Shown here piece by piece: positions 1,110 to 59,235 of a stretch of 64,000 bases of DNA (position 1 is the stretch's first letter; every line of letters begins with the position of its first letter). Below the pieces are notes generated by a model. It did not search any database, had not been told where the DNA came from, and saw nothing but the letters and a program-made list of their open reading frames with translations. Origin of the DNA: an uncultured Gemmatimonadaceae bacterium (lineage in GTDB: Bacteria; Gemmatimonadota; Gemmatimonadetes; Gemmatimonadales; Gemmatimonadaceae). The position numbers were made by a program, and so were the translations under genes. The stretch lies in the NCBI GenBank assembly GCA_963781585.1, contig CAWAGQ010000003.1, positions 192,001 to 256,000 on the forward strand, in the 5' to 3' direction.

Positions 1110-1705
1110 TCTCCCAGGTCACCGGGCGGCTGATCGCGAAGGACGTGGATCGCGTCGAGGTCGCCACATCGGGAGGCGTAGCGTACGAGCTGGCGGTTCC
1201 CCTGAGTACGTTCGAACGCCTCCCGGCCGCCGGCCAGCAGATCACGCTGTTCACCGATCTGGTGGTGCGCGACGACGAGTGGTTGCTGTACGGTTTTGGA
1301 ACGCTGCTGGAGCGTCGGGTCTTCCGGCGGCTCCGTGGCGCCACCGGCGTGGGTCCGGCCCTCGCGTTAGGCATGCTGTCGCGGTTCGCCGCCGACCGGC
1401 TGGTGCGTGCCATTCGCGAGCGCGACGTGGCGGTGCTGCAGACCGTGCCGCGGGTGGGCCGCAAGAAAGCGCAGCAGCTGGTGCTCGACCTGGCGGACAA
1501 GCTGGACGACTTGCTGGAAGACGAAGGCGTCGTGCCGCGGACCGGGGGGTCGGCTGCCGACGACGCGATGCGCGCCCTGGTGTCGCTGGGGTATTCGGGC
1601 GTGGAAGCGGAGAAGGCGGTGCACGCGGCCCTGGACGGCGTGGACGGCATCCCCAGCGTGCCGAACCTCATTCGCGCAGCGCTGGCGAAGGTGGGCCGGG
1701 GCTGA
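1106..1705 (+). CDS. ruvA: Holliday junction branch migration protein RuvA
   Basis: LLYGF, GVGPALAL, VPRVGRKKAQ, ALVSLGY motifs. Confidence 0.95.
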   Translation: MISQVTGRLIAKDVDRVEVATSGGVAYELAVPLSTFERLPAAGQQITLFTDLVVRDDEWLLYGFGTLLERRVFRRLRGATGVGPALALGMLSRFAADRLVRAIRERDVAVLQTVPRVGRKKAQQLVLDLADKLDDLLEDEGVVPRTGGSAADDAMRALVSLGYSGVEAEKAVHAALDGVDGIPSVPNLIRAALAKVGRG

Positions 1706-1775
1706 GCAACGCCCGGCGCGATTGCCCCCGCCCTGCCCGCCGGTTCTATTCGACTCTCCCGGAGCCATTCCCGTC

Positions 1776-2930
1776 ATGCCTGCCGCCCGAACTGCCACCT
1801 TCACCGAGTCCGTCATCCGCGAGATGACGCGCGTCGCCCATCAGCACGGCGCGATCAATCTGGCGCAGGGCTTTCCCGACTTCGCGATGCCGTCGCCCAT
1901 GAAGGACGCGGCCAGCGCCGCCATCCATGGCGACGTCAATCAGTACGCCATCACCTGGGGAACGCCGGCGCTGCGGCTCGCGATCGCGGACAAGTACCGA
2001 CGGTGGTACGACTTCACCGTGAATACCGAGACCGAGATCACGGTGACCTGCGGCGCCACCGAAGCGATGGCGTCGGTTTTTCTCGCGCTGGTCGATCCCG
2101 GCGACGAAGTCATCATCTTCGAGCCGTTCTACGAGAACTACGGGCCCGACGCCGTCCTCGCCGGTGCCAGGCCCGTGTTCGTGCCGCTCGAACCGCCCAC
2201 CTGGCGCTTCGACCCGGACGAGCTGCGTCGCGCCTTCTCGCCCCGCACGCGCGCGATCATCGTCAACACGCCGCATAACCCCACGGGTCGGGTCTTCACG
2301 CGCGACGAGATGGCGCTGATAGCCGGACTCTGCGTCGAACACGACGTCTGGGCGTTCACCGACGAGATCTACGAGCACATCCGGTACGCGGGCAATCATC
2401 ATCTGCTGGCCGCGTTTCCGGGAATGCGGGAGCGGACGGTGACGATATCGGGGCTGTCCAAGACCTTCAGCTGCACGGGATGGCGGCTGGGTTACGCCAT
2501 CGCACCGCCGCGGGAAACGGTGGCCATTCGCAAGGTGCACGACTTCCTGACCGTGGGCGCACCAGCTCCGCTGCAGGAGGCGGGGGCCGTGGGGATGGCG
2601 TTCGGTCCGGACTACTACAACCGCCTGGCGCAGGAGTATCGGGAGCGGCGCGAGATCCTGTGCGGCGCGCTGCGAGAGGCCGGATTCGTCTTTACGGTGC
2701 CCGAAGGCGCGTACTATGTACTGGCGGATTTCTCCAGCCTGAGCAGCGTGGACGATCGTGAGTTCGGGCTCTGGCTGGCGCGGGATATCGGCGTGGCGAC
2801 CGTTCCCGGGTCGAGCTTCCACGCCACCGAGGGCCGCGGCAGCCGGTTTGCGCGGTTTGCGTTCTGCAAGAAGCGGGAGACGCTGGAGGCCGCCGCCGAG
2901 CGGCTGCTGAGAGTCAGATCGCTCGTCTAG
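1776..2930 (+). CDS. PLP-dependent aminotransferase class I/II
   Basis: AINLAQGFPD, NTPHNPTG, DEIYE, SKTFSCTGWRLG; start moved to ATG 1776. Confidence 0.92.
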   Translation: MPAARTATFTESVIREMTRVAHQHGAINLAQGFPDFAMPSPMKDAASAAIHGDVNQYAITWGTPALRLAIADKYRRWYDFTVNTETEITVTCGATEAMASVFLALVDPGDEVIIFEPFYENYGPDAVLAGARPVFVPLEPPTWRFDPDELRRAFSPRTRAIIVNTPHNPTGRVFTRDEMALIAGLCVEHDVWAFTDEIYEHIRYAGNHHLLAAFPGMRERTVTISGLSKTFSCTGWRLGYAIAPPRETVAIRKVHDFLTVGAPAPLQEAGAVGMAFGPDYYNRLAQEYRERREILCGALREAGFVFTVPEGAYYVLADFSSLSSVDDREFGLWLARDIGVATVPGSSFHATEGRGSRFARFAFCKKRETLEAAAERLLRVRSLV

Positions 2931-2982
2931 ACGGCCGCGCCCGGAGGCAGGCGCGCCGTGAGGCAGGCGCGGCTTGGGGCCG

Positions 2983-4893
2983 TCAGGATGCCGCGTTGCG
3001 CTTCCGGCTGCGCGGCGCGCGTGCCGCGGACAGCCCGTCGTGCGGGACGAGCACCCGGGTCACGAAATCCTCGGCGCTCATGGGGTATGCGAACAAGTAG
3101 CCCTGCCCCAGGGTGCAGCCCAGGGCACGCAGGCCGTCGCGCTGGTTGGCGCGCTCGATCCCCTCGGCCACGGTCTCGATTCCCAGCGTCTTGCCTAACG
3201 CAATGATCGCGCGCGCCAGCACCGGATCTTCGTCTTCGTTCCCCACCGCGTCGACAAAGGTGCGGTCGATCTTCAGCATGTCGATCGGAAACTGCTGCAG
3301 ATAGCCGAGCGACGAATAGCCGGTCCCGAAGTCGTCGATGGCCAGATTCAGCCCGAGCGCCTTGAGCGAGCGCAGTTTGTCCAGCGTGCTGTGCGATCGC
3401 TGCATCAGCACGCTCTCGGTGATCTCGAGGGTGAGGGCCCACGGTTCGAGGCGGGAATCCTCCAGCGCGCTCCGGACGTCGTCCACCAGGGACGGATCCT
3501 GGAAATGGCGTCCCGAGAGGTTGACGCTCATCTGCATCAGGCGCGCGGCCGGATTCCGGGAGCGCCATTCGCGCGCCCGCTCGCAGGCCTCGCGCAGCAC
3601 GGCGCGGCCGATCGGAATGATCAGCCCCGTTTCCTCGGCGACCTCGACGAACTTGGCCGGAGCCACGATCCCGCGCTCGGGATCGTGCCACCGGACCAGC
3701 GCTTCGGCGCCGTAGATCTCGCCGGAGTTGAGGTTGATGATCGGCTGGTATTCCACCTGGAAGTTCTGCTGGGCCACCGCCGCCCGCAGGTCGGCCTCGA
3801 GCTCGAGCCGCTCCATGACCAGCTGGTGCATCTCGCGCTCGTAGATCGCATAGTGCCCCTTGTGGCGCGCCTTGGCGAAGTACATCGCCAGGTCGGCGTT
3901 CCGGAGCACGTCGCCGGGAGTGTCGCCTAACGACACGGCGGCGATGCCGATGCTGACGCTGATGAACACGTCGCGGCCTCGCACCCGGAACGGCGCCCGC
4001 AGCGCCTGGGCGATCCGCTCGGCGGCCACCTCCACGTCGGCCAGGGTGTCCACGTCCTCCAGCAGGACCGCGAATTCGTCTCCGCCCAGGCGGGCGATCG
4101 TGTCGGCGGGCCGCACGCAGCCGGTGAGTCGGCCCGCGGCCGCCAGGAGCAGCTCGTCGCCCACCGCGTGTCCGAGGGAGTCGTTGACCTTCTTGAAGTC
4201 GTCCAGGTCGAGGAACAGCACCGATGCCGGATGCTTCCCGCGCGGCGCACGTGCCACCGCGTGCCCCACCCGATTCAGGAACAGCGCCCGGTTCGCCAGT
4301 CGCGTCAACTCGTCGTGAAAGGCCTGGTGGGTGAGCCGGGCCTGGAGCGTGCGACGCTCGGAGATGTCGCGCGCGTTCACCACGATCCCGCCCACCATGG
4401 GTTCGGCCGTCAGGTTGGTTCCGATGTTCTCGGTCCACAGCGCGACGCCATCGGGCCGCACCAGACGCCACTCCTCCACCAGCGACGTCGCGGCCTCGAC
4501 CTTCTGCAGCTGCGCGAAGAACCGCTGCGCCGCCTCGCGATCGTCGGCGTGCACGAGCTCGATCAGCCGCCTTCCCTGGAGCTCATCGGCATCGATCCCC
4601 AGTACCTGCCGCGCGGTCGGACTGGCGTAGCGCACTACGGTCTCCGCGTCGCTGATCAGAATCACGTCCGACGAGTTCTGCACGAGTGACCGGAATCGGG
4701 CTTCACTGGCCGCCAGGGTGATCACGTCGTCGCGCACCGAAGCCACCCGACGCACCAGCGCCAGGAGCACTATCGCCACGAGGATGAACGCCAGTGACGT
4801 GAGCAGGTTCTGTGACTGCGGGCGCAGCAGGTAGAGCACGCACGCCGACCCGACGACGATGGCCGCACCCCATCCCTCGGGAAGCCGCGCCAT
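2983..4893 (-). CDS. Membrane-anchored PAS-GGDEF-EAL diguanylate cyclase/phosphodiesterase
   Basis: Two N-terminal hydrophobic segments, PAS (RFRSLVQNSSD), RLGGDEF, EAL, IDDFGTGYSS; start uncertain. Confidence 0.92.
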   Translation of the reverse strand: MARLPEGWGAAIVVGSACVLYLLRPQSQNLLTSLAFILVAIVLLALVRRVASVRDDVITLAASEARFRSLVQNSSDVILISDAETVVRYASPTARQVLGIDADELQGRRLIELVHADDREAAQRFFAQLQKVEAATSLVEEWRLVRPDGVALWTENIGTNLTAEPMVGGIVVNARDISERRTLQARLTHQAFHDELTRLANRALFLNRVGHAVARAPRGKHPASVLFLDLDDFKKVNDSLGHAVGDELLLAAAGRLTGCVRPADTIARLGGDEFAVLLEDVDTLADVEVAAERIAQALRAPFRVRGRDVFISVSIGIAAVSLGDTPGDVLRNADLAMYFAKARHKGHYAIYEREMHQLVMERLELEADLRAAVAQQNFQVEYQPIINLNSGEIYGAEALVRWHDPERGIVAPAKFVEVAEETGLIIPIGRAVLREACERAREWRSRNPAARLMQMSVNLSGRHFQDPSLVDDVRSALEDSRLEPWALTLEITESVLMQRSHSTLDKLRSLKALGLNLAIDDFGTGYSSLGYLQQFPIDMLKIDRTFVDAVGNEDEDPVLARAIIALGKTLGIETVAEGIERANQRDGLRALGCTLGQGYLFAYPMSAEDFVTRVLVPHDGLSAARAPRSRKRNAAS

Positions 4894-6364: not shown

Positions 6365-6373
6365 AGGGCGCCC

Positions 6374-7414
6374 TTGACCCACGGATTCCGCACCGCCGAC
6401 TACGAGTACGCGCTCCCCACCGGCCGGATCGCCCAGAAGCCTAACGAGCGGCGCGATCGGAGCCGCCTGCTGGTCGTCGATCGCGAAACCGGGAGGCTCG
6501 AACACCGGGTGTTCGCCGAGCTTCCGGATCTGGTCCCGCCCGGCGACGCGCTGGTGCTCAACACCACCCGCGTGCGGCGCGCCCGTCTCCTCGGCCGGCG
6601 CGGTTCGGGCGCCCCGGCGGAAGTCCTGCTGCTTCGCGCCACCGGCGAGGAAAAGCAGTTCGAGGCGCTGGTGCACCCGGGCGGAAAGCTCCGGCCCGGG
6701 CGCGTGGTCCATGTCGCACCCGGTCTGGACGTGATCATCGAGCGGACCACCGCTCGTCGCACCCGCATCGTGCGGCTGCAGACGACGCTGTCGGCCGACG
6801 CGGCGATCGAGCAGTTCGGCCATGTGCCGCTGCCGCCGTATATCGCGCGCGACGACACCGCCGACGATGACGCCCGGTATCAGACCGTGTACGCGCGGGA
6901 GCCGGGGTCGGCCGCCGCGCCCACCGCCGGTCTGCATTTCACTCGTGAGCTGCTCGAGGACCTCGAGCGTCGCGGCGTACGGCGCGTCGACGTCGTGCTG
7001 CACGTCGGCGCGGGGACGTTCAAGCCGGTGGAGCACGACGATCCGGCACAGCACGTCATGCACGAGGAGTGGTACGACGTACGTGACGACGCCGTGGCGC
7101 GACTGGAAGCCACCCGCGCGGCGGGCGGCAGGATCTGGGCCGTGGGCACCACATCGGCCCGCACGCTGGAGACGATCGCCGGCGAGGGCGGTCGCTGGCA
7201 TTCCGGCGCGGGGGAAACTCGACTCTTCATCCGGCCTCCGTACCGATGGCGCGCCGTGGACAGGCTGATCACCAACTTCCATCTTCCGCGCTCCACGCTG
7301 CTCATGCTGGTGGCGGCGTTCGCCGGCTACGAGCTTACCATGGAAGCGTACCGCGTCGCGCTCGATTCGGGGTATCGGTTCTACTCCTACGGCGACGCCA
7401 TGGCGATTCTCTGA
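6374..7414 (+). CDS. queA: SAM:tRNA ribosyltransferase-isomerase QueA
   Basis: VPLPPYI, YQTVYA, AAPTAGLHF, TNFHLPRST, YRFYSYGDAM. Confidence 0.97.
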   Translation: MTHGFRTADYEYALPTGRIAQKPNERRDRSRLLVVDRETGRLEHRVFAELPDLVPPGDALVLNTTRVRRARLLGRRGSGAPAEVLLLRATGEEKQFEALVHPGGKLRPGRVVHVAPGLDVIIERTTARRTRIVRLQTTLSADAAIEQFGHVPLPPYIARDDTADDDARYQTVYAREPGSAAAPTAGLHFTRELLEDLERRGVRRVDVVLHVGAGTFKPVEHDDPAQHVMHEEWYDVRDDAVARLEATRAAGGRIWAVGTTSARTLETIAGEGGRWHSGAGETRLFIRPPYRWRAVDRLITNFHLPRSTLLMLVAAFAGYELTMEAYRVALDSGYRFYSYGDAMAIL

Positions 7415-9579: not shown

Positions 9580-9580
9580 G

Positions 9581-10513
9581 ATGCGCGTCCTCTTCTGGGG
9601 GACGCCCGACTTCGCCGCCCCGGCGCTGCGCGCATTGATCGGCGAAGGGTACGACGTCGTCGGCGTCGTAACCCGGCCGGATCGGCCGCAGGGGCGCCAC
9701 CGCAGTGTGCCCGCACCACCGCCGGTGAAGGAAATCGCTGTTGCCGAGGAGATCCCCGTGCTGCAGCCTGAACGGCCGCGCGGTGACGAGTTCCTGCGGG
9801 CGATCCGCGACCTCCAGCCCGACGTGTCGGTGGTGATCGCGTACGGGCACCTGCTGCCGGTCGATGCCATCGACCTGCCGACCCTGGCGACGGTGAACCT
9901 GCACGCTTCGCTCCTGCCCCGGTGGCGTGGCGCGGCACCCATCCAGGCCGCCATCCTCGAGGGTGACGCCGAGACCGGGATCTCGGTGATGCGCATGGTG
10001 GAGCAGCTCGATGCCGGTCCGGTGCTGCTTCAGGCCCCGACGCCGATTGTCGAGGACGAGACCTTCGGAGAGCTCCATCTGCGCCTCTCGGAGCTGGGGG
10101 CTCTGGCGGTGGTGGAGGCGCTGGCGCTGCTGGCGTTAGGCGATGCACCCGAGCACGCGCAGGACGAGGCGCGCGCGACCTACGCGCCGAAGATCGGTCG
10201 CGAGCAGACCCGCATCGACTGGACGCGCCCGGCCGAGCGGATAGCGCGGGTGGTGCGCGCGTTCGACCCGGCTCCCGGCGCATTCAGCACACTCCGGGGC
10301 GCCGACGTGAAGCTCTTCGGCGCCCGGGTCGCGTCCGACGCCCGCGGCGATCCGGGCGAGGTGCTCGAGGTCGATGAGTCGGGGTTGCTGGTGGCCTGCG
10401 GCACATCGGCAGTGCGGCTCGGCTACGCCCAGCCATCCGGGCGGCGCCGTCTGGCCGGGCTGGACTGGGCCCAGGGACGGGGGGTGTTCGTGGGAGACCG
10501 GTTTGGCGCGTAA
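9581..10513 (+). CDS. fmt: Methionyl-tRNA formyltransferase
   Basis: FWGTPDFA, NLHASLLPRWRGAAPIQ, LDAG. Confidence 0.97.
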   Translation: MRVLFWGTPDFAAPALRALIGEGYDVVGVVTRPDRPQGRHRSVPAPPPVKEIAVAEEIPVLQPERPRGDEFLRAIRDLQPDVSVVIAYGHLLPVDAIDLPTLATVNLHASLLPRWRGAAPIQAAILEGDAETGISVMRMVEQLDAGPVLLQAPTPIVEDETFGELHLRLSELGALAVVEALALLALGDAPEHAQDEARATYAPKIGREQTRIDWTRPAERIARVVRAFDPAPGAFSTLRGADVKLFGARVASDARGDPGEVLEVDESGLLVACGTSAVRLGYAQPSGRRRLAGLDWAQGRGVFVGDRFGA

Positions 10514-13313: not shown

Positions 13314-13915
13314 GGGACGCTGTACGCCGCGCGGGAGGCACTCGACGCGCGCTGGGGGCCGCGCGGACCCTGGTCGTGACGGTTCTGGCGCTGGCAGGGG
13401 TCGCCGGCATTCTACTGATGAGGCGGTCGCCCGACGCGGCGGCGCGGATGATCACGGTGGGCTCGACGGCTCCGGATTTCCTCGCCAAGACGCTCGACTC
13501 GGTGCCGAAGACCCGTAGCCTGGCCGACTATCGCGGCCAGGTGGTGCTGCTGAATCTGTGGGCGTCGTGGTGCGAGCCATGCCGGGTCGAGATGCCGAGC
13601 ATCGAGGCGCTGTACCGGCAGTTCGGACCGCACGGCCTCAAGGTGGTCGCGGTGGCCACCGACGATCCGGGGTTCGAGGATCGCGTGCGGTCGTTCGTGG
13701 CGCGCTACGGCCTCACCTTCGACGTCCTGAGCGAGGGATCCGGCAGGATCGAGCAGTCCTATCAGTCGTTAGGCATTCCATCCACCTTCCTGATCGGACG
13801 CGACGGGATGATCCGCAAGCGGGTCACCGGGGCCTCCGACTGGAGTTCTCCCGCCAACCAGGCGCTGGTGTCGCAACTGCTCGGCATCCCACTGCCCTCC
13901 GCCGGCGGATCATGA
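13310..13915 (+). CDS. TlpA/ResA-like thiol:disulfide oxidoreductase
   Basis: N-terminal anchor, LNLWASWCEPC..EMP, IPSTFLI. Confidence 0.92.
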   Translation: MRDAVRRAGGTRRALGAARTLVVTVLALAGVAGILLMRRSPDAAARMITVGSTAPDFLAKTLDSVPKTRSLADYRGQVVLLNLWASWCEPCRVEMPSIEALYRQFGPHGLKVVAVATDDPGFEDRVRSFVARYGLTFDVLSEGSGRIEQSYQSLGIPSTFLIGRDGMIRKRVTGASDWSSPANQALVSQLLGIPLPSAGGS

Positions 13916-14994
13916 CCGTCGTGCTGGGAGTGGAGACGTCGTGCGACGAGACCTCCGCGGCGGTGGTGGCCGGCTGCGGCGACGAGGTGACGCAGCGTTC
14001 GCTGGTGATCCTGTCGCAGGACGTTCACCGCGTATTCGGCGGCGTGGTTCCCGAGATCGCATCGCGGGCGCATCTCACGGCGATCGTTCCGGTGGTCGGG
14101 CGCGCGCTCGCCGATGCCGGCGCGTCGCTCGATGACGTGGACGTGGTGGCGGTGACGAACGGTCCCGGACTGGTGGGAGCGCTGCTGGTGGGTTTGAGTT
14201 TCGCGAAAGCGATGGCGTTCGCGCGGGGCAAGCGACTGATCGGGGTGCACCACATGGAGGGCCACCTGTTCGCCCAGTCGCTCGAGCACGCCGACGCCGT
14301 TCCCCCGTTCACCGCGCTCCTCGTTTCGGGCGGGCACACGATGCTGATCGACGCCCCGGCGTGGGGGACCTATCGCCTGCTGGGAGCGACGCGGGACGAC
14401 GCCGCCGGCGAGGCGTTCGACAAGGTCGCCAAGCTGCTGGGCCTGCCCTATCCCGGCGGCCGGCCGGTCGAGCGCCTGGCGCGCGACGGCGATCCGCGCC
14501 GGTTCCACTTCGCGCGCCCGATGCTCCGACGCAGCCAGGCACCCGGGGACGACGATTACTACGACGTATCGTTCAGCGGCCTCAAGACCGCGGTGCTGCA
14601 TGCGGTGCGCGGGTCGCCCGATCCGGAGGGCGATCGGCCGCACCTGGCGCGCGGCTTTCAGGACGCCCTGATCGAGACGCTGGTGGAGAAGACCTACCGT
14701 GCGGCCGCCCGGTTCGGGCGACGACGGGTGGTCCTGGGCGGCGGCGTGGCCTGCAACGGTGCGCTGGCCGACGCGATGCGCGAGCGACTGTCCTCGTTAG
14801 GCGCCGAGCTGTTCGCGCCGAGTCCGCGGCTGGCCACCGATAACGCGGCGATGATCGCCCGCGCCGGCCTGTTTCGCGCCGAAGCCGGCGCCCGCGACGG
14901 CTGGGATCTGAACGCCTATGCCAGCCTCCCGCTCCCCGGCCTGGTCCAGGACCGGCACCCCGGTCGTCGCATCAGGAAGATGGCTGCCGGGTAG
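13912..14994 (+). CDS. tsaD: t6A synthase TsaD
   Basis: GVETSCDET, GGVVPEIASRAH, HHMEGH, VSGGHT, SFSGLKT, TDNAAMI. Confidence 0.97.
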   Translation: MTVVLGVETSCDETSAAVVAGCGDEVTQRSLVILSQDVHRVFGGVVPEIASRAHLTAIVPVVGRALADAGASLDDVDVVAVTNGPGLVGALLVGLSFAKAMAFARGKRLIGVHHMEGHLFAQSLEHADAVPPFTALLVSGGHTMLIDAPAWGTYRLLGATRDDAAGEAFDKVAKLLGLPYPGGRPVERLARDGDPRRFHFARPMLRRSQAPGDDDYYDVSFSGLKTAVLHAVRGSPDPEGDRPHLARGFQDALIETLVEKTYRAAARFGRRRVVLGGGVACNGALADAMRERLSSLGAELFAPSPRLATDNAAMIARAGLFRAEAGARDGWDLNAYASLPLPGLVQDRHPGRRIRKMAAG

Positions 14995-15071: not shown

Positions 15072-15926
15072 ATGCCCATCATTCACCATCCGCTCGAGAT
15101 CCACATCGGTCCGCTTCCCCTCACCGGGTTCGGTATCGCGGTAATGCTCGCGTTCGTGCTCTCGAATTTCATCGCCGAGCGGGTACTGGAGCGGCGCGGC
15201 CATCCGGATTCGGCCCGGGCCATCCCCGATCTCATCATCGCCTGCATCGTGGGGACGCTGATCGGCGGCAAGCTGTACTACGCAGGCATCGTGACGCACA
15301 ACTGGCATGATCTCTTCGGGCGCGCAGGGTTCGTGTTCTGGGGAGGGTTCACCGGTTCAGTGCTGGCAAGCTGGTTGTACATCTGGTACAAGAAGCTCTC
15401 CTTCGTCCGGTTTGCCGACGTCGCGGGCATCTGCATCGCGGCCGGCTACTCGGTGGGGCGCACCGGATGCTGGGCGGTGGGCGACGACTACGGCCGCCCA
15501 TGGAACGGCCCGCTGGCCGTGCTGTTCCCCAACGGATCGCCGCCGTCCACCGCCGAGAACATGCGACAACTGTTTCACCTGCCGGTGCCGGCCGGGGTCG
15601 CGAGCGACACCGTGCTGTCGGTCTACCCGACGCAGCTGCTGGAAGTGGCGCTCGGGTTCGTGATGTTTCTCGTCCTGTGGCGCTACCGCGACCACCGACA
15701 TGCGGAGGGGTGGCTCTTCGGGCTGTGGGCGGTCCTGGCCGGCCTGGAGCGCTTCGCGGTCGAATTCCTGCGCGCCAAGGACGATCGTTTTCTCGGGACC
15801 CTGACTCTGGCCCAGGCAATCGCGCTGGCGGTGACGGTGATCGGCGCCCTGGTGATGTACTGGCGCTGGAACACCGGTCCCGCGCGACCCGGGATCCGCC
15901 CGCTCCCGGCCCACCAGGCTCGTTAG
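15072..15926 (+). CDS. lgt: Prolipoprotein diacylglyceryl transferase
   Basis: Multi-TM protein; GRTGC..GDDYG, YPTQLLE, ERFAVEFLR. Confidence 0.88.
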   Translation: MPIIHHPLEIHIGPLPLTGFGIAVMLAFVLSNFIAERVLERRGHPDSARAIPDLIIACIVGTLIGGKLYYAGIVTHNWHDLFGRAGFVFWGGFTGSVLASWLYIWYKKLSFVRFADVAGICIAAGYSVGRTGCWAVGDDYGRPWNGPLAVLFPNGSPPSTAENMRQLFHLPVPAGVASDTVLSVYPTQLLEVALGFVMFLVLWRYRDHRHAEGWLFGLWAVLAGLERFAVEFLRAKDDRFLGTLTLAQAIALAVTVIGALVMYWRWNTGPARPGIRPLPAHQAR

Positions 15927-16013
15927 GCTCCCGCGTGTGCCCGGTCCGGCGGCGACCGCGGGGCCAGTCGCCGACGCCCGGCCGTCGTCAACCCCGGAGG
16001 GTGGACGGGCTGC

Positions 16014-22434: not shown

Positions 22435-22448
22435 CCGCCGCCTAACGA

Positions 22449-44972: not shown

Positions 44973-45866
44973 ATGCAGCAAGTGACCGAGAGCCGGGCCA
45001 AAGGGTTCGTTCGTTCCTCCCCCTCCACAGCTTTCGATCAATACCTGCACGACATCCAGAAGCTCCCCCTCATCACCGATCCGGAAGAGGAACGCCGCCT
45101 GGCGCGTCGCGCCCAGAAAGGCGACGAGAAAGCCGCCGAGCGGCTGGTCACGGCGAACCTGCGATTCGTGATCTCGTACGTGAAGAAGTACCAGGGGCAC
45201 GGACTCGATCTCAGCGAGCTCGTCGCCATCGGGAACGAAGGCCTGCTGAAGGCGGTGCGGAAGTTCGATCCGGATCAGGGCGTGAAGTTCATTTCGTACG
45301 CCGTGTGGTGGGTGCGACAGGCGGTCCTCAAGGCGCTGGCCGAGCAGACGCGCTCGGTGCGCATCCCGCTCAACCAGAATTCGCAGCTGATCCGGCTGTC
45401 GCGCGCCGAGACGATCCTCTCCCAGGTGCTGAAGCGCGATCCCACCGATCACGAAATCAGCCGGCTGCTCGAGGACACAGTTGAGAACGTCCGCTCGGCG
45501 CGGCAGATGACCTCGACCGAAGTCTCCCTCGATGCTCCCATCGACCGCAGCGATCGCGACGCCGCCACGTTAGGCGAGCGGTTCTCCGGCGTCGATGGCA
45601 CCGAGATCGAGGAGCGGACTGACGGCCGGCTGATGCGCGAGTTCATCGACCGGGTCTTCGCCAAGTACCTCACTCCGCGGGAGCGCCGGATCCTCTACCT
45701 CTACTACGGGCTCGAGGAAGGGTCGGAGGCCATGACACTGGAACGCATCGGCGCGCTCATGGGCGTCACGCGGGAGCGGATCCGGCAGATTCGCGAGCGC
45801 GCCTTCGAGAAACTCCGCGAATCACCCGACGGCCGCGCCCTGGCGAGCTTCTGGACCGCCGCCTGA
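44973..45866 (+). CDS. sigma70-family factor lacking region 1.1 (group 2-like)
   Basis: ANLRFV, KFISYAVWWVRQ, VRIP, SLDAP, GVTRERIRQI. Confidence 0.93.
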   Translation: MQQVTESRAKGFVRSSPSTAFDQYLHDIQKLPLITDPEEERRLARRAQKGDEKAAERLVTANLRFVISYVKKYQGHGLDLSELVAIGNEGLLKAVRKFDPDQGVKFISYAVWWVRQAVLKALAEQTRSVRIPLNQNSQLIRLSRAETILSQVLKRDPTDHEISRLLEDTVENVRSARQMTSTEVSLDAPIDRSDRDAATLGERFSGVDGTEIEERTDGRLMREFIDRVFAKYLTPRERRILYLYYGLEEGSEAMTLERIGALMGVTRERIRQIRERAFEKLRESPDGRALASFWTAA

Positions 45867-46756: not shown

Positions 46757-48189
46757 CGGCACCGTCCGGGCTGGCGGCGCGTCTTGCGGCGATCGTCGGG
46801 GACAGGCACGTCCTGGAACGTCCGGCGGAGCTCCTGGTGTATTCGGCCGACGGACTGCCAGGGTATCGCAAGCGCCCGTCGCTCGCCGTGTTTCCGGGTG
46901 CGCGGGACGAAGCCGTCGACGTCGTCAGGCTGCTGGCCGCCGAGCGCGTCCCCTTCGTGCCGCGTGGGGCCGGCACAGGATTGTCCGGTGGGGCGCTCGC
47001 GGACGACGTCGTACTGTTGGGCATGAACCGGCTCACCCGCATTCTCGACATCGATGCCGCGAACCGTCGGGCTCTGGTGGAGCCGGGCGTGGTGAACGTG
47101 GCGCTGTCGCGGGCGGTCGCCCCGTTCGGCCTGTACTACGCCCCCGACCCCTCCAGTCAGGCAGCCTGCACGATCGGCGGGAATGTCGCCGAAAACGCGG
47201 GTGGTCCCCATTGCCTGAAGTACGGCACGACCGTCAATCATGTGATCGCGCTCACGGCGGTGCTCCCCGACGGCGCGGTCGTGGCGTTAGGCAGCGCCGA
47301 CGGTGAAGTGGAAGGCTACGACCTCCGCGGCGCGTTCGTCGGCTCGGAAGGCTGCTTCGGTGTCGCCCTGGACGTCACCGTGCGCCTCACACCGTTGCCG
47401 CAGGCCGTGTGCACCATGCTCGCCGATTTCGGCTCCATCGACGCCGCCGCCCTGGTGGTCTCGGCGATCATCGCCGAGGGCATCGTGCCCGCCGCTCTGG
47501 AGATGATGGATGGCCCGACGATCCGTGCCGTCGAGGCGTCCATCTACGCCGCGGGGTACCCCGTCGATGCCGCCGCCGTGCTCCTGATCGAGATCGATGG
47601 CCTCGCCGCCGGCCTCGAGCAGGACGTCGATCGCGTGGAGGAGATCTGTCGCCAGGGCGGATGCCGCTCGATCGTCACCGCACGCGACGAGGCCGTCCGT
47701 GCCAGGCTGTGGCAGGGCCGCAAGAAGGCGTTCGGCGCAATGGGACGCGTTTCGTCGCACCTGGTCGTGCAGGACGCGGTCGTACCCCGCACCAGACTGC
47801 CGGCCGTGCTCGCCGAAGTGGGGCGCATCGCGGCCGCGTACCACGTGAACGTCTGCAACGTATTCCACGCGGGCGACGGAAACCTCCACCCGAACATCGC
47901 CTACGATGGACACGACCGCGACGAGCGGGAGCGCGTTCACGCCGCGATGCGGGATATCATGCGCGCTTGCGTGGCGGCTGGCGGGAGCGTGACCGGCGAG
48001 CACGGCGTGGGACTCGACAAGCTGGATTACATGCCGCTGATCTTCTCCGACGACTCGCTCGATGCCATGTGCCGTTTGCGCGATGCCTTCGACCCGGACC
48101 GCCGTGCCAATCCGGGCAAGGTCGTTCCGGTGCGCTCCTGTCGCGAGTGGGCGGGAGTGCCGGCCACACGGGCGGTCGCGGCCACGTGA
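46753..48189 (+). CDS. glcD: Glycolate oxidase FAD subunit GlcD-like
   Basis: PRGAGTGLSGG, APDPSS, NAGGPHCLKYG, HAGDGNLH, GEHGVG. Confidence 0.88.
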   Translation: MTAPSGLAARLAAIVGDRHVLERPAELLVYSADGLPGYRKRPSLAVFPGARDEAVDVVRLLAAERVPFVPRGAGTGLSGGALADDVVLLGMNRLTRILDIDAANRRALVEPGVVNVALSRAVAPFGLYYAPDPSSQAACTIGGNVAENAGGPHCLKYGTTVNHVIALTAVLPDGAVVALGSADGEVEGYDLRGAFVGSEGCFGVALDVTVRLTPLPQAVCTMLADFGSIDAAALVVSAIIAEGIVPAALEMMDGPTIRAVEASIYAAGYPVDAAAVLLIEIDGLAAGLEQDVDRVEEICRQGGCRSIVTARDEAVRARLWQGRKKAFGAMGRVSSHLVVQDAVVPRTRLPAVLAEVGRIAAAYHVNVCNVFHAGDGNLHPNIAYDGHDRDERERVHAAMRDIMRACVAAGGSVTGEHGVGLDKLDYMPLIFSDDSLDAMCRLRDAFDPDRRANPGKVVPVRSCREWAGVPATRAVAAT

Positions 48190-49370
48190 CGGGCAGGCTG
48201 GTGGACCGGCTGCCGACCGGGCTCTCGCGCGTGGACATTGCGGCGAACGAAACCGACGTCGTGGAGATCGTCCGTGCTGCGCACGCCGCCCGGACGCCGC
48301 TTCGCATCGTCGGCGGCGGCACCTGGCTGGAGGCGGGCCGGCCGGTGGCCGCGAAGACCGGCATCGACGTGTTGCCGCTGAGCGGTATCACCGAGTACGT
48401 GCCAGGCGACCTCACGCTCACGGCGCGGGCCGGTACCACACTGGCCGAGATCGACGCAGCCACCCGCGCTCACCGGCAGTGGCTCCCGCTGGATCCGTTC
48501 GGGCCGCCGCTCGGGACGCTGGGGGCCACGCTCGCGACGGCGTCGGCAGGGCCGCTCGCGTCCAGCATCGGGTCCCCCCGCGATGTGGCGCTGGGCCTCG
48601 CCTTCGTCTCGGGCGACGGGAAGCTCATCCGAGGCGGCGGTCGCGTGGTCAAGAATGTCGCCGGCTTCGACCTGGTCCGGTTGGCAGTGGGCGCCTGGGG
48701 CACGATCGGCGTCGTGGTCGAGGCCACGGTCAGGCTGCGCGCCCGGGCCGAGGCCGATGAAACCGTGGGCCTGCGGCTCCCGCCGACCGCGCGCGAGGTG
48801 GCGGAGCTGCTCGGTGCGATCCGCCGCGCCGCCGTTGCGCCGCTCGCGGCGGAGCTGATCTCTGCCAGCCTGGCCCAGCGGATCGGGGTGGGAGCGGAGA
48901 GCCTGCTGCTGGTGCGCCTGGCGGGAAACGCCGCGTCCGTCCGCGCGCAACGCGCCGAGACGGCGCGTTGCGCGCCGGCCGCGGACGTGGCGGCCGACGT
49001 ATGGGAACGCCTTGCCGGCGCCGAACCGCCGTCGTCCTGGATCGTTAGGCTGTCAGGCCGCCCGTCGGAACTGGCACGCCTCTGGGAGTGCGCACTCGGA
49101 TTGGTCGACGGCGCGGGTGGACTGGCGCACGCTTCCCTCGAGCGCGGCGTCGTGCGCTGCTGGCTCGACGGCGCGAACCCACCGATGCACGAGGCGGCCG
49201 TCGGGGCGCTCGACGCCGCCGGCACCCGGATCTTCGAGCGACTGCCGGCCGCCGTCTGGCTCCGCCTGACGGTCCCCGCCGCCGATGACCCGCTGTCACG
49301 CGCGGTGCGACACGCTTTCGACCCGGACCGCATTCTCAACCCCGGCATTCTCGGGGAGCTGCAATCGTGA
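48186..49370 (+). CDS. glcE: Glycolate oxidase FAD-binding subunit GlcE-like
   Basis: EYVPGDLT, GGRVVKNVAGFD, FDPDRILNPG. Confidence 0.85.
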   Translation: MTGRLVDRLPTGLSRVDIAANETDVVEIVRAAHAARTPLRIVGGGTWLEAGRPVAAKTGIDVLPLSGITEYVPGDLTLTARAGTTLAEIDAATRAHRQWLPLDPFGPPLGTLGATLATASAGPLASSIGSPRDVALGLAFVSGDGKLIRGGGRVVKNVAGFDLVRLAVGAWGTIGVVVEATVRLRARAEADETVGLRLPPTAREVAELLGAIRRAAVAPLAAELISASLAQRIGVGAESLLLVRLAGNAASVRAQRAETARCAPAADVAADVWERLAGAEPPSSWIVRLSGRPSELARLWECALGLVDGAGGLAHASLERGVVRCWLDGANPPMHEAAVGALDAAGTRIFERLPAAVWLRLTVPAADDPLSRAVRHAFDPDRILNPGILGELQS

Positions 49371-51407: not shown

Positions 51408-52480
51408 TGGAAGCCCACACGCCTAACGCGATCGGACGCAGCGACGGACGCGGACCGGAGCCGCGGTCGCACGGTCCGTCGTCCGCCGGCAACCCGGTGC
51501 TGGAATACGACGCCCTCCGGGGCGCCGCCATCGTCCTCGACCGCAGTGATCGGACGCGGGCCACGTTCGCCGGACCGGCGGCGGCCGAGGTGCTCACCGG
51601 CCTGCTCACCAACGACGTTCCTGCGCTGACGCCCGGTCAGGGTCAATACGCGGCCGTGCTCACTCCCAAAGGGAAGATCATCGCCGACGTGCGCGTGTTC
51701 GCGCGCGACCAGGACCTGTTTGTCGATGCCCCCGCCCGCGCTTCGGCCGGGTGGTGGAACCTCGTCCGCAAATTCGTCAACCCGCGCCTGGCCCGCTATG
51801 CCGATGTCAGCGCGTCGCTCGGCGACATCGGAATCTTCGGCCTGGCGGCGGTGGGTGTGGTCGGCAGAATGTGCGGGCTGGGCCCCGAGGAGCTGACAGC
51901 GCTCGCTCCGTATGCGCACCGGCAGGTGCAGCTCGGGAGCGAGAAGGTCATGCTGGCTCGTGTGCCCGATGCCGGGTTGGATGGATTCGAGTTCTTCCCG
52001 GAGCTGGAGGCGGTGCTCGAGGTGCGTGCGCGCGCGATCCAGTGCGGCGCCACGCCCGCCGGCGCGGCCGCGTTCGAGATCGCCCGCATCGAGGCGGGAC
52101 GCCCCGAGTGGGGTCTGGACATGGATGACACGACCCTGCCCCAGGAGGCCAACCTCGACACGCTCCACGCCATCTCGTACACGAAGGGATGCTATACCGG
52201 GCAGGAGACGGTGGCCCGCGTGCATTTCCGCGGACACGTGAATCGTCACTTGCGTGGACTGGAGTTCGATCCAGCAGTCCTGCCGGTGGTCGGCGCCGAG
52301 CTGGTCGATGACGCCGAGCGTGTGGTCGGAGACGTACGAAGTGTCGCGCGCTCTCCGAGACTCGGCGGTGTGGCGCTGGCAATGGTGCGTCGCGAGGTGC
52401 AGCCGGGCGGGATACTCATGGCGAGGTGGCCGGAAGGCACGGTTCGCGTGAGTGTGCTCGAGCTCCCGTTCCCGCCCTGA
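51407..52480 (+). CDS. ygfZ: YgfZ/GcvT-like folate-binding protein
   Basis: LTND, TPKGK, ARIEAG, KGCYTGQE signature. Confidence 0.88.
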   Translation: MEAHTPNAIGRSDGRGPEPRSHGPSSAGNPVLEYDALRGAAIVLDRSDRTRATFAGPAAAEVLTGLLTNDVPALTPGQGQYAAVLTPKGKIIADVRVFARDQDLFVDAPARASAGWWNLVRKFVNPRLARYADVSASLGDIGIFGLAAVGVVGRMCGLGPEELTALAPYAHRQVQLGSEKVMLARVPDAGLDGFEFFPELEAVLEVRARAIQCGATPAGAAAFEIARIEAGRPEWGLDMDDTTLPQEANLDTLHAISYTKGCYTGQETVARVHFRGHVNRHLRGLEFDPAVLPVVGAELVDDAERVVGDVRSVARSPRLGGVALAMVRREVQPGGILMARWPEGTVRVSVLELPFPP

Positions 52481-54114: not shown

Positions 54115-54669
54115 TTGTCCACCTCCCGCACTGCCACCCATCCGGCGCCACGGTCCGGCCGCGGGCGGCGCCGGGCCCCTCCGGGCCGCGAGCCGGTCCT
54201 CGTGAGGGCCGCCGTAGGGGACGACGAGCCGGCGGTCACGGCGTTGCGGCTGGCGCTCCTGGCGGAGGAAGCGAGGAGTCCACTCTTCGCCCAGCCTCAT
54301 CCGCGCGCCGCAGACCGGGCGCGCCAACTCTCGGCCACGCAGCTGGCGGCACGGAACGAAGCGGTGCTGCTGGCCTTTGCCGGCGCCCACGCCGTCGGCA
54401 TGCTGCGCTGTTCGATCGCTCGCGGGTTTCCGCTCGTGCGCGACGCCCGCCACGCGGCGTTGACGTCGGCCTACGTTCGGCCGGAATACCGGCGCAAGGG
54501 CGTTCTCCGGGCCCTGCTGTCCGCCGCCGACGAATGGTGCCGAGCGCGTCGGCTCGGCGAGATGCGCCTGCGATGCACGGTGGAGAACGCTGGCGGCAAC
54601 GCCGCCTGGGAATCGTTAGGCTTCGCCCCCGCGGAGATCGTGCACCGCCGCCCGGTTCCCCGGTCCTGA
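54115..54669 (+). CDS. GNAT family acetyltransferase
   Basis: YVRPEYRRKG, N...WESLGF; start may be GTG 54202. Confidence 0.8.
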   Translation: MSTSRTATHPAPRSGRGRRRAPPGREPVLVRAAVGDDEPAVTALRLALLAEEARSPLFAQPHPRAADRARQLSATQLAARNEAVLLAFAGAHAVGMLRCSIARGFPLVRDARHAALTSAYVRPEYRRKGVLRALLSAADEWCRARRLGEMRLRCTVENAGGNAAWESLGFAPAEIVHRRPVPRS

Positions 54670-54675
54670 TCACGC

Positions 54676-55308
54676 GTGCCGGTCATCACCATCTCTCGCA
54701 TGTTCGGATCCGGCGGCTCGGAGGTCGCCCGCGGGGTGGCGCAGGCCCTTCGGTGGACGCTGGTGGACAACGCGTTCGTGGAGGGCGTGGCCGGGCGGCT
54801 CGGCACCACACCGGCAACGGTGGAAGCCATCGAAGAGCGGGTGCCCACACTGGCCGAACGGATTGCCGATGCGTTCGCCCTTGGCTCTCCGGAGGTGTTG
54901 CCGGCGGCCATGTCCACTCCCCTTCTGCCAACGGAAGAACGGGTGCTCCAGGTCACGCGCCGCCTCATCGACGAGACCCTCGCCCGCGGGCCGGCGGTGC
55001 TGGTGGGACGCGGCGCCCAGGCATACCTCGAACCGCGCGCCGACGCACTCCACGTCCTGTGCTGCGCGCCGCACGAGGCGCTTGTGGCTCGCGTGGCCGA
55101 GCGCGATCACCTGGCGCCGGACGAGGCCGACCGGCTGGTGCGCGAGAAGAACCAGCAACGCGCGCAGTTCGTGCAGGCCAACTGGGGACGGCAATGGCTC
55201 GCCCCGGAACACTATCATCTCTGTCTCAACACCACCTGGCTGGGGATCGATGCCGCGGTCGACCTGGTGGTGCAACGGGCGCGCATCCAGTTCGGCGCTG
55301 CTCGTTAG
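54676..55308 (+). CDS. Cytidylate kinase-like family protein
   Basis: VITISRMFGSGG, VLVGRG, YHLCLNT. Confidence 0.85.
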   Translation: MPVITISRMFGSGGSEVARGVAQALRWTLVDNAFVEGVAGRLGTTPATVEAIEERVPTLAERIADAFALGSPEVLPAAMSTPLLPTEERVLQVTRRLIDETLARGPAVLVGRGAQAYLEPRADALHVLCCAPHEALVARVAERDHLAPDEADRLVREKNQQRAQFVQANWGRQWLAPEHYHLCLNTTWLGIDAAVDLVVQRARIQFGAAR

Positions 55309-55315
55309 GCACGCA

Positions 55316-56545: not shown

Positions 56546-56664
56546 GGGGGAAAACTAGTGACGGGCCGCTGCTCACGTCGGAACAGGACGCTGGATATGT
56601 TGTTGGAGCAAGGGCAAACGCGGCATACTTCGCATGACCAGCTCTCTCCTTCGGCCGTCCCGTC

Positions 56665-57945
56665 GTGCGCTTCCACACCTACTCCAGGTTCACCCCTGAG
56701 CTCGCCGACGCGATCGATCTCGAATCGCTCCTCGAGCGGATGGCGGACTTTCTGCTGCAATCCGGCTTTGCCGGCGGCTCCTACTCGCACCCCTACTGGG
56801 GTGATTTCGGCGAGGAAGAGGACCGGTCGCTCGAAGCTCTCAAGCGCGCGATCCTCGACGCGCTGATCGAGAGCGGTCAGCTCACCCCGGAAATGCTCGC
56901 GGCGCTCCGCGGCGAGGGGGACGAGGAGGCGGCCCAACAGCTCGCCGAGTTGCTGGATCAGATCGTGCGCGGCCTGGCCGAGAAGGGCTTCCTGCACCTC
57001 GACGCTCCGCCCCGGGTGGCCGACAGCCATCAGCCAGTCGAAGGCAAGGGGAGCCTGTCGCACGCCGCGTCGCGCGACGTGCAGTTCCGGCTCACCGAGA
57101 AAGGCATCGATTTTCTGGGATACCGCGCCCTGCGACACATCCTGGGCTCGTTGGGACGCAGCAGCGTGGGGAGCCACGACACGCCCCATCTCGCCACCGG
57201 CATCGAGTCAGACGGATGGAGCAAACCGTACGAATTCGGCGATACCCTCAATCTCGATGTCAACCAGACGCTCAAGAACACCCTCGCCCGCACCGGGTCG
57301 CTCGCCGTTCCCATGGACCTCGACTATCCCGACCTGATGGTCCATCAGGCGGAGTATCGCTCGTCCTGCGCGACGGTGCTGCTGCTCGATACATCGCACT
57401 CGATGATCCTGTACGGGGAAGATCGCTTCACGCCGGCCAAGAAGGTCGCGCTCGCACTCACCCACCTGATCAGGACCCAGTATCCCGGGGATACCATTCG
57501 GGTCGTCCTGTTTCACGATTCGGCGGAGGAGATTCCGCTGGCCACTCTGGCCCACGCGCAGGTGGGACCGTACCACACCAACACCGCGGAAGGACTGAGA
57601 CTCTCACGCCGGATTCTGCTCGGACAGAAGAAGGACATGCGCCAGGTGATCATGATCACCGACGGCAAGCCCAGCGCACTCACGATGCCCAACGGCCTGG
57701 TCTACAAGAACGCGATGGGGCTCGACGCCGAGATTATCGCCGCGACCCTCAAGGAAGTGGCGGAATGCCGGCGGGCCGGCATCATGATCAACACGTTCAT
57801 GCTCGCCCGCGATCGGGCGCTGGTGGAGTTCGTCAAGCGCGTGGCGGCGCTCAGCCGCGGCAAAGCGTACTTCACCAACACCATGACGCTCGGACAGTTC
57901 ATCCTCATGGACTTCCTCAAGCGAAAGACGCGAAAGGTAAGCTGA
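56665..57945 (+). CDS. VWA domain protein
   Basis: [20 protein letters not shown]. Confidence 0.88.
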
Positions 57946-59097
57946 ATGCCCGAGCTGCCATCGCTGGATCGGGAGGAGATCCACCGATACAGCCGCCATC
58001 TCCTCCTCCCCGAGGTGGGATTGGAAGGACAGCGCCAGTTCAAGGCCGCGCGTGTCCTCGTGGTCGGCGCCGGCGGGCTCGGATCGCCGGCCGCGCTCTA
58101 CCTCGCCGCCGCCGGCGTCGGGACGCTCGGATTGGTCGATTTCGACGTGGTGGACCTGACCAACCTTCAGCGTCAGATTCTCCATGGGACCAGGGACGTG
58201 GGCCGCTCCAAGCTCGAATCGGCGCGTGAGCGGATCGGCGACCTCAATCCGCACGTGCGCGTCGAGTGTTTCGAGACCCGGCTCACCTCCGCCAACGCCC
58301 TCCAGATCGCCGCCGGCTTCGACATCGTGGTTGATGGCACCGACAACTTCGCCACCCGCTATCTGGTGAACGATACCTGCGTGCTGCTAGGCAGGCCTAA
58401 CGTCTACGGCAGCATCTTCCGGTTCGAGGGCCAGGCGTCGGTGTTCGCGACGGCCGACGGTCCCTGTTATCGCTGCCTGTACCCCGAGCCGCCGCCCCCA
58501 GGCCTGGTTCCCAGCTGCGCCGAAGGCGGCGTACTGGGTGTCCTCCCGGGGCTGATCGGCAGCATCCAGGCGACCGAGACCTTGAAGCTGATTCTGGGTC
58601 GGGGCACGTCGCTGGTGGGACGGCTGCTGCTCGTCGACGCGCTGAACGTCCGGATACGGTCGGTGAACGTGCGCCGGAACCCGGGCTGTCCCGCCTGCGG
58701 TACCCGCGAGATTCGTGAGCTCATCGACTACGACCAGTTCTGCGGCGCCCAGCCGACCACCGACGGCGCGGCCGGCCAGGTTCCCGAGATCGCACCGCGC
58801 GAGCTGCTGGCTCGCCTCGCCGCGGGCGAGTCGGTCACGGTGCTCGACGTGCGGGAAGCGTACGAGCGCGCCATCGCCTCCATCGACGGCTCCCGCCACA
58901 TCCCGCTCGGCGCGCTCGAGCAGGCCATGGGCACCCTCGATCCGGGTACGGAGATCGTCGTCTACTGCCAGAGCGGCATTCGCAGCGCAGACGCGGTGCG
59001 CCGCCTGCGCGCCGCCGGTTTCACGAGGGTATGGAACCTGGTCGGGGGCATCAATCGCTGGACCGCGGACGTCGATTCCGCCGTCCGTATCTCCTGA
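57946..59097 (+). CDS. moeB: MoeB/MoeZ adenylyltransferase with C-terminal rhodanese
   Basis: RYSRH, GAGGLG, NLQRQ, DGTDN, CYRC, SCAEGG, CPAC, YCQSGIRS. Confidence 0.92.
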   Translation: MPELPSLDREEIHRYSRHLLLPEVGLEGQRQFKAARVLVVGAGGLGSPAALYLAAAGVGTLGLVDFDVVDLTNLQRQILHGTRDVGRSKLESARERIGDLNPHVRVECFETRLTSANALQIAAGFDIVVDGTDNFATRYLVNDTCVLLGRPNVYGSIFRFEGQASVFATADGPCYRCLYPEPPPPGLVPSCAEGGVLGVLPGLIGSIQATETLKLILGRGTSLVGRLLLVDALNVRIRSVNVRRNPGCPACGTREIRELIDYDQFCGAQPTTDGAAGQVPEIAPRELLARLAAGESVTVLDVREAYERAIASIDGSRHIPLGALEQAMGTLDPGTEIVVYCQSGIRSADAVRRLRAAGFTRVWNLVGGINRWTADVDSAVRIS

Positions 59098-59235
59098 ACT
59101 GCCCGCCGGTGTCCTCATCCGGGTGCACGCGCCCCGCGCTGCGGCTGTCGGATGGTGCGGCATCACGCCCGGTTCCCGTGCCTGACGCCGGGCCGCGGCC
59201 GCATCGCGCGTGCCGGTTCCCTCGTTAGGCTCCCG

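Follow-up and report, generated by a model that had tools for sequence, protein, structure and literature searches.

A hyper-abundant 8-bp word in genomes of the Gemmatimonadaceae that contains the integron core and is possibly a DNA uptake sequence

Few hyper-abundant short genomic words are known, i.e. the DNA uptake sequences (DUS) of Neisseriaceae and the uptake signal sequences (USS) of Pasteurellaceae, the highly iterated palindrome HIP1 (GCGATCGC) of cyanobacteria, Chi and the FtsK-orienting polar sequences (KOPS), and each of them has revealed, or still hides, a genome-wide machine. DUS and USS are short exact words with hundreds to thousands of copies, and according to parts of a preprint on DNA-uptake-enhancing sequences (DUES), about half of the known ones lie in terminators, mostly as inverted pairs (bioRxiv 10.1101/2025.10.24.684340). 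HIP1 is described, in passages of a study on it, as a hyper-abundant 8-mer in genes and intergenic DNA alike, with a 15- to 300-fold excess, sites conserved beyond background and an unknown function (PMC5861425). Chi, KOPS and the architecture imparting sequences (AIMS) are over-represented octamers spread along the chromosome and skewed to the leading strand. Here, we describe the word CGTTAGGC (reverse complement GCCTAACG), which an earlier note, made from sequence alone, had picked out as a dispersed uptake-like or HIP1-like motif in a 64,000-nt stretch of an uncultured Gemmatimonadaceae bacterium (hereafter the window; C3:192001-256000 of the assembly G000).

The G000 assembly (5.72 Mb, 17 contigs, 67% G+C) was determined to carry 1442 copies of CGTTAGGC, 724 forward and 718 reverse, with every contig contributing 0.19-0.34 per kb. 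Compared with the 50.6 copies expected from an order-3 Markov model, this is a 28.5-fold excess and the highest z-score of all 8-mers, and shuffles of synonymous codons that preserved proteins and codon usage left only 44 (shuffled per gene) or 31 (shuffled genome-wide) in-gene copies versus the 1084 observed, a 25-35-fold excess, so the enrichment pointed out by the earlier note survives both this Markov null and the codon-aware one. A maximal-order Markov model based on 7-mers did not flag CGTTAGGC in G000, because the component 7-mers barely occur outside the word, C preceding 1442 of the 1591 occurrences of GTTAGGC and following 1442 of the 1706 of CGTTAGG. The flanks are nearly uninformative, with C avoided just 5′ and a purine preferred just 3′, both over all copies and over 208 clearly intergenic ones; neither a conserved flank nor 10-12-mer families nor an attC left arm was found around the dispersed copies in G000. 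An extended motif or a mobile repeat was rejected, the unit being the bare 8-mer with no longer repeat around its copies.

About three quarters of the copies lie inside genes, as called by a crude caller of our own (4167 genes, 80% of the DNA of G000). On the sense strand, 735 copies read xCG-TTA-GGC and 24 read GTT-AGG; on the antisense strand, 265 give CCT-AAC and 59 CTA-ACG; 96 copies span a gene end and 262 are outside called genes, while the two unused reading frames of the word contain TAG or TAA. The in-gene word is built round TTA, the rarest Leu codon, for which a tRNA-Leu(UAA) is present in G000, and 735 of the 1203 TTA codons (61%) fall inside xCG-TTA-GGC; hence TTA codons are not equally common outside the word, whereas equal abundance there would, according to the earlier note, have told against its motif. 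In the sense frame, 14-21% of the [S/P/T/A]-Leu-Gly tripeptides are written with the word, and in the antisense frame 24.5% of the x-Pro-Asn-(G..) sites. The motif had been called frame-independent, which holds only in part: of the four stop-free frames, two take up most copies, but these two lie on opposite strands and are filled alike, and the cause should therefore act at the DNA level. Genes carry 0.26 copies per kb and short true intergenic spacers 0.21-0.42 copies per kb, and this equality, the excess over codon shuffles and the frame saturation on both strands together indicate a cause acting on DNA rather than on peptides, codons or mRNA. Site conservation, given below, agrees, and the maintenance of the word at the DNA level, as first proposed, is thus upheld. 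Intergenic copies between co-directional genes were 49 sense versus 32 antisense, a sense-strand or RNA-level bias that was not significant; with the frames equally saturated on both strands, an RNA-level or sense-strand function was rejected. As a side observation on gene ends, TAG ends 1264 of the 4167 called genes, and this share of 30% is high at 67% G+C; 67 of the TAG stops and 37 of the 306 TAA stops fall inside the word.

The window consists of ordinary housekeeping DNA (ruvCAB, queA, tgt, yajC, def, fmt, rsmB, rpe, tsaD, lgt, tamB, bamA, aroB, a sigma factor gene, gltA and others) and holds 22 exact copies, 14 on the plus and 8 on the minus strand, compared with a mean of 0.83 and a maximum of 5 in 100 dinucleotide-preserving shuffles. 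By exact-match counting, all 22 copies listed in the earlier note were found at their exact coordinates, and so were two near-copies, AGTTAGGC at 21845 and CGTTAGGG on the reverse strand at 44951; T precedes the word 12 times, G 8 times and A twice, but C never. The readings as Pro-Asn (4), Val-Arg (1) and TAG stop (2; lgt ending at 15926 and a cytidylate-kinase-like gene at 55308) were recovered as well, while with our crude gene calls the x-Leu-Gly readings came to 12 instead of the claimed 13 and the copies outside genes to 3 instead of 2. The copies, all located by exact match and, except for the three outside genes, assigned by gene call, are as follows.

1365..1372, plus strand, in ruvA, GCG-TTA-GGC (Ala-Leu-Gly)
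3193..3200, minus strand, in a PAS-GGDEF-EAL gene, sense strand, GCG-TTA-GGC
3925..3932, minus strand, in the PAS-GGDEF-EAL gene, sense strand, TCG-TTA-GGC
6439..6446, minus strand, antisense in queA, mRNA AAG-CCT-AAC-GAG (Pro-Asn)
10134..10141, plus strand, in fmt, GCG-TTA-GGC
13767..13774, plus strand, in an AhpC/TSA redoxin gene, TCG-TTA-GGC
14795..14802, plus strand, in tsaD, TCG-TTA-GGC
15921..15928, plus strand, giving lgt its TAG stop (CGT-TAG)
17742..17749, minus strand, in an FTR1/cytochrome c gene, sense strand, GCG-TTA-GGC
22440..22447, minus strand, intergenic, in the spacer between a DUF6941 gene and a BNR/sortilin gene
25387..25394, minus strand, in the BNR/sortilin-like gene, sense strand, GCG-TTA-GGC
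31295..31302, plus strand, antisense in a GAF-PAS gene, mRNA CCT-AAC (Pro-Asn)
41557..41564, plus strand, in a MazG-like gene, TCG-TTA-GGC
43695..43702, plus strand, in the 3-dehydroquinate synthase gene, GCG-TTA-GGC
45568..45575, plus strand, in a sigma-70 family gene, ACG-TTA-GGC
47285..47292, plus strand, in an FAD-linked oxidase gene, GCG-TTA-GGC
49043..49050, plus strand, in an FAD-binding gene, ATC-GTT-AGG-CTG (Val-Arg)
51421..51428, minus strand, antisense in a GCV_T-like gene, mRNA CCT-AAC (Pro-Asn)
54614..54621, plus strand, 5′ of the called cytidylate-kinase-like gene, scored outside genes
55303..55310, plus strand, giving the cytidylate-kinase-like gene its TAG stop
58395..58402, minus strand, antisense in a ThiF/rhodanese gene, mRNA CCT-AAC (Pro-Asn)
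59223..59230, plus strand, in the spacer between the ThiF gene and a called HhH-GPD gene, scored outside genes

Two alignments allowed the fate of single sites to be followed between species. Contigs C5 and C8 of the G000 assembly are collinear and 88% identical over ~358 kb spanning the cumulative GC-skew minimum (the likely origin); the pair is probably explained by a contig of a sister species in the bin, in line with a contamination figure of 7.19%. G001, a genome of the same genus, was aligned over 120 kb round the window at ~88% identity. C5 and C8 shared 74 motif sites, with 15 only in the first and 18 only in the second, and G000 and G001 shared 23, with 6 and 4 private to each, respectively. 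Motif sites were conserved at 82%, versus 42% for all 8-mers, 44-56% for synonymous Leu-Gly words and 12-49% for five other control words, whereas flank identity (0.88-0.90) stayed at the background of 0.875; conservation is limited to the 8 bp, and so the constraint spans exactly these. That the word is kept between species despite forcing a rare codon indicates that some system reads it. Over longer distances most sites have turned over: of 8 window sites compared, no more than 4 retained the word in one of four more distant motif-rich relatives (L001, L002, L003 and L008), and in place of the TTA of the window the orthologous codons, whose comparison the earlier note had suggested, are mostly CTC or CTG, so that a copy arises by two synonymous steps. 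Four one-base variants, CGTTAGGT, TGTTAGGC, CGTTATGC and CGTCAGGC, were enriched in motif-rich genomes only, and CGTCAGGC sites were conserved at 59-65%, above background, while changes at word positions 2, 3, 5 and 7 gave no enrichment.

With replication direction assigned on nine contig segments by their cumulative GC skew, the sense fraction of the copies in G000 was 69% both in replication-co-oriented (256:113) and in head-on genes (157:71), and intergenic copies were 61 leading versus 54 lagging; word orientation follows the coding strand only. Adjacent copies in a sample of a five-fold denser genome, G009, were same-oriented in 170 and opposite in 179 cases, and the forward fraction was 0.46-0.54 in all 51 family genomes with at least 200 copies. 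Copies are spaced out at short range, as gaps of ≤500 bp numbered 68 in G000 versus 172 expected from a Poisson process and those of ≤100 bp 8 versus 36; in the G009 sample the deficit was confined to gaps below ~300 bp (≤100 bp: 12 versus 41 expected). Regions of G000 with higher local G+C are denser in the word (0.09 per kb at 60%, 0.4 per kb at 70-72%), which is the opposite of what the word's composition predicts and could be produced by a recombination-linked process.

The first, second and fourth longest motif-free stretches of G000 (38.7, 38.4 and 26.5 kb) were annotated and comprise a CRISPR-Cas locus, a region of lower G+C at third codon positions (GC3) near gidA/murB and a core-gene region. 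The longest, C4:866742-905435, encodes alaS, recX, recA, ftsK, accC, a pilT-like ATPase, lptD and tol-pal, has a GC3 below the usual, and could reflect a recent replacement from a motif-poor lineage or highly expressed genes avoiding TTA. A further motif-free gap of 24.6 kb holds the only C5-methyltransferase and Vsr pair of the genome (C7:477177-478451).

For the distribution of the word we scanned 151 Gemmatimonadaceae genomes from 77 genera, a genome being scored as rich if it has more copies of the word than of the reversed control; unpublished genomes contribute to the tallies, namely G008, G042, G043 and G141 to those of the family and G201, G230 and G301 to that of the phylum, and none of them serves as a named example. 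Rich genomes numbered 54 of the 151 (34 genera); density was <0.01 per kb in 84 genomes, at least 0.1 per kb in 44 and >1 per kb in 3, with a top count of 6360 copies in 5.1 Mb and with G009 at 1.25 copies per kb. The trait is uniform within most genera, the exception being genus g54, where 3896 (G057, about 3,900) and 4141 copies contrast with 66. Loci encoding RuvB assign G000 to the Gemmatimonadaceae, and by RuvB similarity, the 14 genomes nearest to it comprise 13 rich and 1 intermediate, while at larger distances rich genera are interleaved with poor ones. In a phylum sample of 201 genomes, genus g109 of a neighbouring family was above control in 3 of 5 genomes, and none of the other 157 non-family genomes was. 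A 400-kb sample of the motif-poor relative G003 had no hyper-abundant 8-mer of any kind. As to a responsible gene, g54 (G057 and G157 versus G115) offers the sharpest natural contrast for finding it.

Bases 2-8 of the word, GTTAGGC, fit the core of integron recombination sites, a likeness absent from the earlier note. According to parts of an integron review, this 7-bp core is GTTRRRY, strand exchange occurs between its first and second bases, and a TAG within it can act as the stop codon of a cassette (PMC8876359), and passages of a further paper report integrons in Gemmatimonadota (PMC8618304). By a rough count of our own, an arbitrary 8-mer would match GTTAGGC by chance in ~2 of 10,000 cases, so the identity is unlikely to be a coincidence. 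Many of the few copies that motif-poor relatives have stand in one-strand arrays 500-650 bp apart, which are textbook attC sites with R″ GCCTAAC or GTCTAAC, complementary L″/L′ arms and the R′ end CGTTAGGC or CGTTAGAC; these arrays adjoin intI genes or intI fragments, and the R′ end is CGTTAGGC in most repeats seen in the order. G000 itself has an intact intI at C7:185885-186829. Sites resembling attC and ending in the word lie at C7:170-183 kb, where they share side and strand with intI (region C7:157000-186829), and at C13:335 kb; C13 bears IntI fragments together with one clear attC (C13:299000-335300), and the true attC arrays of G000 amount to a handful of sites. IntI was found in 90 of the 151 family genomes, a frequency far above that of most phyla.

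The dispersed copies share with the attC R′ end the GTTAGGC core and the internal TAG serving as a stop codon, but unlike attC sites they lie in housekeeping genes, are independent of intI and have no R″/L″...L′-R′ imperfect inverted repeat (~60-130 nt) or conserved flanks. Their preferences differ as well: in attC sites C or T mostly precedes the word, whereas in dispersed copies C is the rarest base at that place, and the common attC variant CGTTAGAC is unenriched (0.6-0.7 fold) while CGTCAGGC and CGTTATGC, both outside GTTRRRY, are enriched.

Several further repeats were met in these searches. Large chromosomal integron cassette arrays occur in motif-poor relatives of another family (L082/L083 at G015:C95:1-24000, L084 on G013:C3 and L085 at G015:C80:1-7000), of which that on G015:C95 has ~26 cassettes of 500-650 bp with very uniform attC ending in CGTTAGGC or CGTTAGAC and that on G015:C80 abuts intI fragments. 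Three identical genes for a tyrosine recombinase of 303 amino acids, with identical flanks, lie in G000 at C7:172407-173237, C7:183006-183836 and C13:309021-309851, each followed ~24 nt on by CGTTAGGC; two are within the cassette array, one is also present in G001, and the unit is possibly a mobile element targeting attC sites. A second enriched word family in G000, AGGCCAAA, AAAGGCCA and CTTTGGCC (331-394 copies), stems from tandem octamer arrays such as (GGCCAAAG)n and (GGTCATAG)n and is ~87% outside genes; in the window it has a single isolated word, at 52839. A heptamer array at C12:6720-6762, (GGTCAGC)n, has matches at many places in the relative G053.

On these comparative data we tentatively read CGTTAGGC as an exact recognition word of 8 bp, recognized in either orientation on double-stranded DNA, that may be a DUES spread by uptake bias and recombination, a reading to which we give somewhat less than an even chance. 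A sequence-specific protein would read the word in a large part of Gemmatimonadaceae; the type IV pilus/ComEA/ComEC transformation apparatus, to which this reader would belong, would prefer word-bearing fragments; DNA imported from kin, if transformation occurs, would replace homologous chromosome segments; and uptake bias plus recombination, as a molecular drive perhaps joined by selection, would spread and preserve the word wherever proteins tolerate it. With a similarly guarded confidence, short of even, uptake may account for how large the excess is and for its symmetry, for the spacing-out and the graded variants, for the clade pattern and possibly for the density rise with G+C; the short-range spacing-out, in particular, would be expected if one copy per fragment is enough. 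The likeness to DUS and USS extends to an excess in their range, equal use of both strands, no replication polarity, a clade at the family level, biased frames, enriched one-mismatch words and the presence of transformation genes, with ComEC and PilM in 21/21 relatives each and ComEA-like and DprA in 5/5 genomes tested. A putative uptake signal remains the best single analogy among those raised by the earlier note.

A number of observations weigh against it. ComEC, PilM, ComEA-like and DprA, the co-occurring competence genes that had been looked for, are equally present in motif-poor relatives and leave the patchiness of the trait unexplained. As a specific reader, two pilin proteins were considered, and both have homologues of 30-45% identity in rich as well as in poor genomes, so no reader was found; a DNA search for the minor-pilin region met sequences too diverged in all five test genomes. 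Unlike DUS and USS, the word has 8 bp without an extended flank, is mostly genic and built round the rarest Leu codon, has no receptor candidate found here, and shows no dialects, being identical across 34 family genera and one genus of another family. The association with terminators and inverted repeats is missing, as the 1442 copies include only 8 pairs spaced by 100 bp or less, one of which forms a terminator-like hairpin, terminator prediction not having been run. The 38.7 kb core-gene gap with recA and ftsK would not be expected from the reported bias of DUES to genome-maintenance genes. Island depletion, which the earlier note had proposed to look for, was seen in part, in that two motif-free gaps are islands (CRISPR-Cas; C5-methyltransferase and Vsr), which speaks for uptake, but the segments of C5 and C8 without alignment are not depleted (0.24-0.25 versus 0.25-0.26 per kb in aligned ones). 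A literature search, in which natural transformation in the phylum was not queried, returned no uptake-sequence paper for this phylum or beyond Neisseriaceae and Pasteurellaceae.

The word could instead be HIP1-like, i.e. the binding site of an abundant chromosomal protein (nucleoid, segregation or other) kept by weak selection at each site with no link to uptake, which we regard as possible but rather doubtful. It is a hyper-abundant 8-mer within and between genes with sites conserved at 82% versus 42%, a kind of conservation that passages of the HIP1 study read as selection, proposing a chromosome or nucleoid role (PMC5861425); the short-range spacing-out also fits site occupancy, and the lack of terminator association and of dialects fits better than for a DUES. 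However, HIP1 is palindromic, contains methyltransferase target sites and belongs to another phylum, whereas CGTTAGGC is asymmetric, which excludes a symmetric dimeric binder, and is tracked by neither PF01555 nor Vsr; selection would be needed at each of 1,400 to 6,400 sites, every one of which imposes a rare codon, the ~100-fold density range among related genera would be odd for core architecture, and no candidate protein was found. Methylation or mismatch-repair drive, in which a methyltransferase marks the word and Vsr-like biased repair converts near-matches to it, a mechanism put forward for HIP-type words, was proposed by the earlier note and appears very unlikely, even though the parts of Elhai's survey drawn on here link such palindromes to orphan methyltransferases (PMC4390886) and G000 has its one C5-methyltransferase and Vsr pair. 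Vsr occurs in 10/54 rich versus 19/97 poor genomes and N6_N4_Mtase (PF01555) in 17/54 versus 46/97; none of PF01555, PF02384 and PF00145 is common to five rich genomes, the D12 class and the Eco57I type not having been searched; G000 has no PF01555 or PF02384 match and its sole C5 enzyme lies in a motif-free island, G057 with its ~3,900 copies matched none of the three, and T:G-to-C:G repair cannot make the A+T-rich TTA centre from the CTC/CTG of relatives. Across the 151 genomes, neither IntI nor Vsr nor PF01555 was positively associated with the trait.

The integron likeness admits two further readings, both improbable in our estimate. The word may be read by an integron-integrase-like tyrosine recombinase, the dispersed copies being secondary recombination or landing sites or by-products of the integrase, which would account for the GTTRRRY fit at bases 2-8, for attC R′ ends in poor relatives that are the word itself, for the intI and attC-like sites of G000, for the unusual commonness of IntI and for a match so rare by chance; we nevertheless hold it unlikely, with IntI in 36/54 rich versus 54/97 poor genomes, no intact intI in the 3 genomes searched of the richest genus, g9, no attC-like flanks, another 5′ base preference and other enriched variants, and insertion sites within essential genes would do harm. 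Slightly less unlikely, in our view, is that the uptake apparatus came to prefer the attC R′ end CGTTAGGC, which every cassette of the order carries, that cassette arrays shed by relatives are imported preferentially and, entering as single strands, handed directly to the integron integrase, and that the bias then drove the word chromosome-wide; such a specificity is plausible because, according to parts of a 2025 study, a chromosomal integron of Vibrio recruits cassettes from transformed single-stranded DNA (PMC12614218). A Chi-like recombination hotspot or a KOPS/AIMS-like orienting sequence is highly improbable and was rejected: an over-represented 8-mer at ~1 per 4 kb resembles the density of Chi in E. 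coli, but the excess is far above that of Chi, and the absence of strand skew and replication polarity, down to the forward fractions and neighbour orientations given above, bears out the poor fit that the earlier note had suspected. A by-product of peptide, codon or dicodon usage, or an artefact of assembly or binning, can hardly be credited at all and was likewise rejected; 735 of 1084 in-gene copies do share one frame, and the bin is contaminated (7.19%) with C5 and C8 homologous, but codon-preserving shuffles reached only 31-44 copies, the word is as dense between genes as in them, the antisense frame is no less saturated, and the trait recurs in 54 of 151 independent assemblies.

No paper on CGTTAGGC as a genomic feature was found among the matches listed in our literature search. 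What is new here is an asymmetric, genic, rare-codon-based hyper-abundant oligomer in a new phylum, identical to the integron core. Its host belongs to a little-studied, mostly uncultured soil phylum, in which the word can exceed one copy per kb and override codon choice, so that most genomic TTA codons exist only through it, and in motif-rich genomes it makes a strong marker, both in binning and in the detection of foreign DNA. The switching between rich and poor among close relatives, even within g54, makes the responsible gene findable by comparative genomics. If the word is an uptake sequence, it would mean sequence-selective transformation outside Proteobacteria and give a handle for the genetics of Gemmatimonadota. 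Through its identity with the integron core, the word also suggests a testable connection of transformation with the capture of cassettes; if uptake specificity was indeed set by attC, the word would be the first uptake sequence from outside Proteobacteria, and transformation and integrons would for the first time be linked in specificity.

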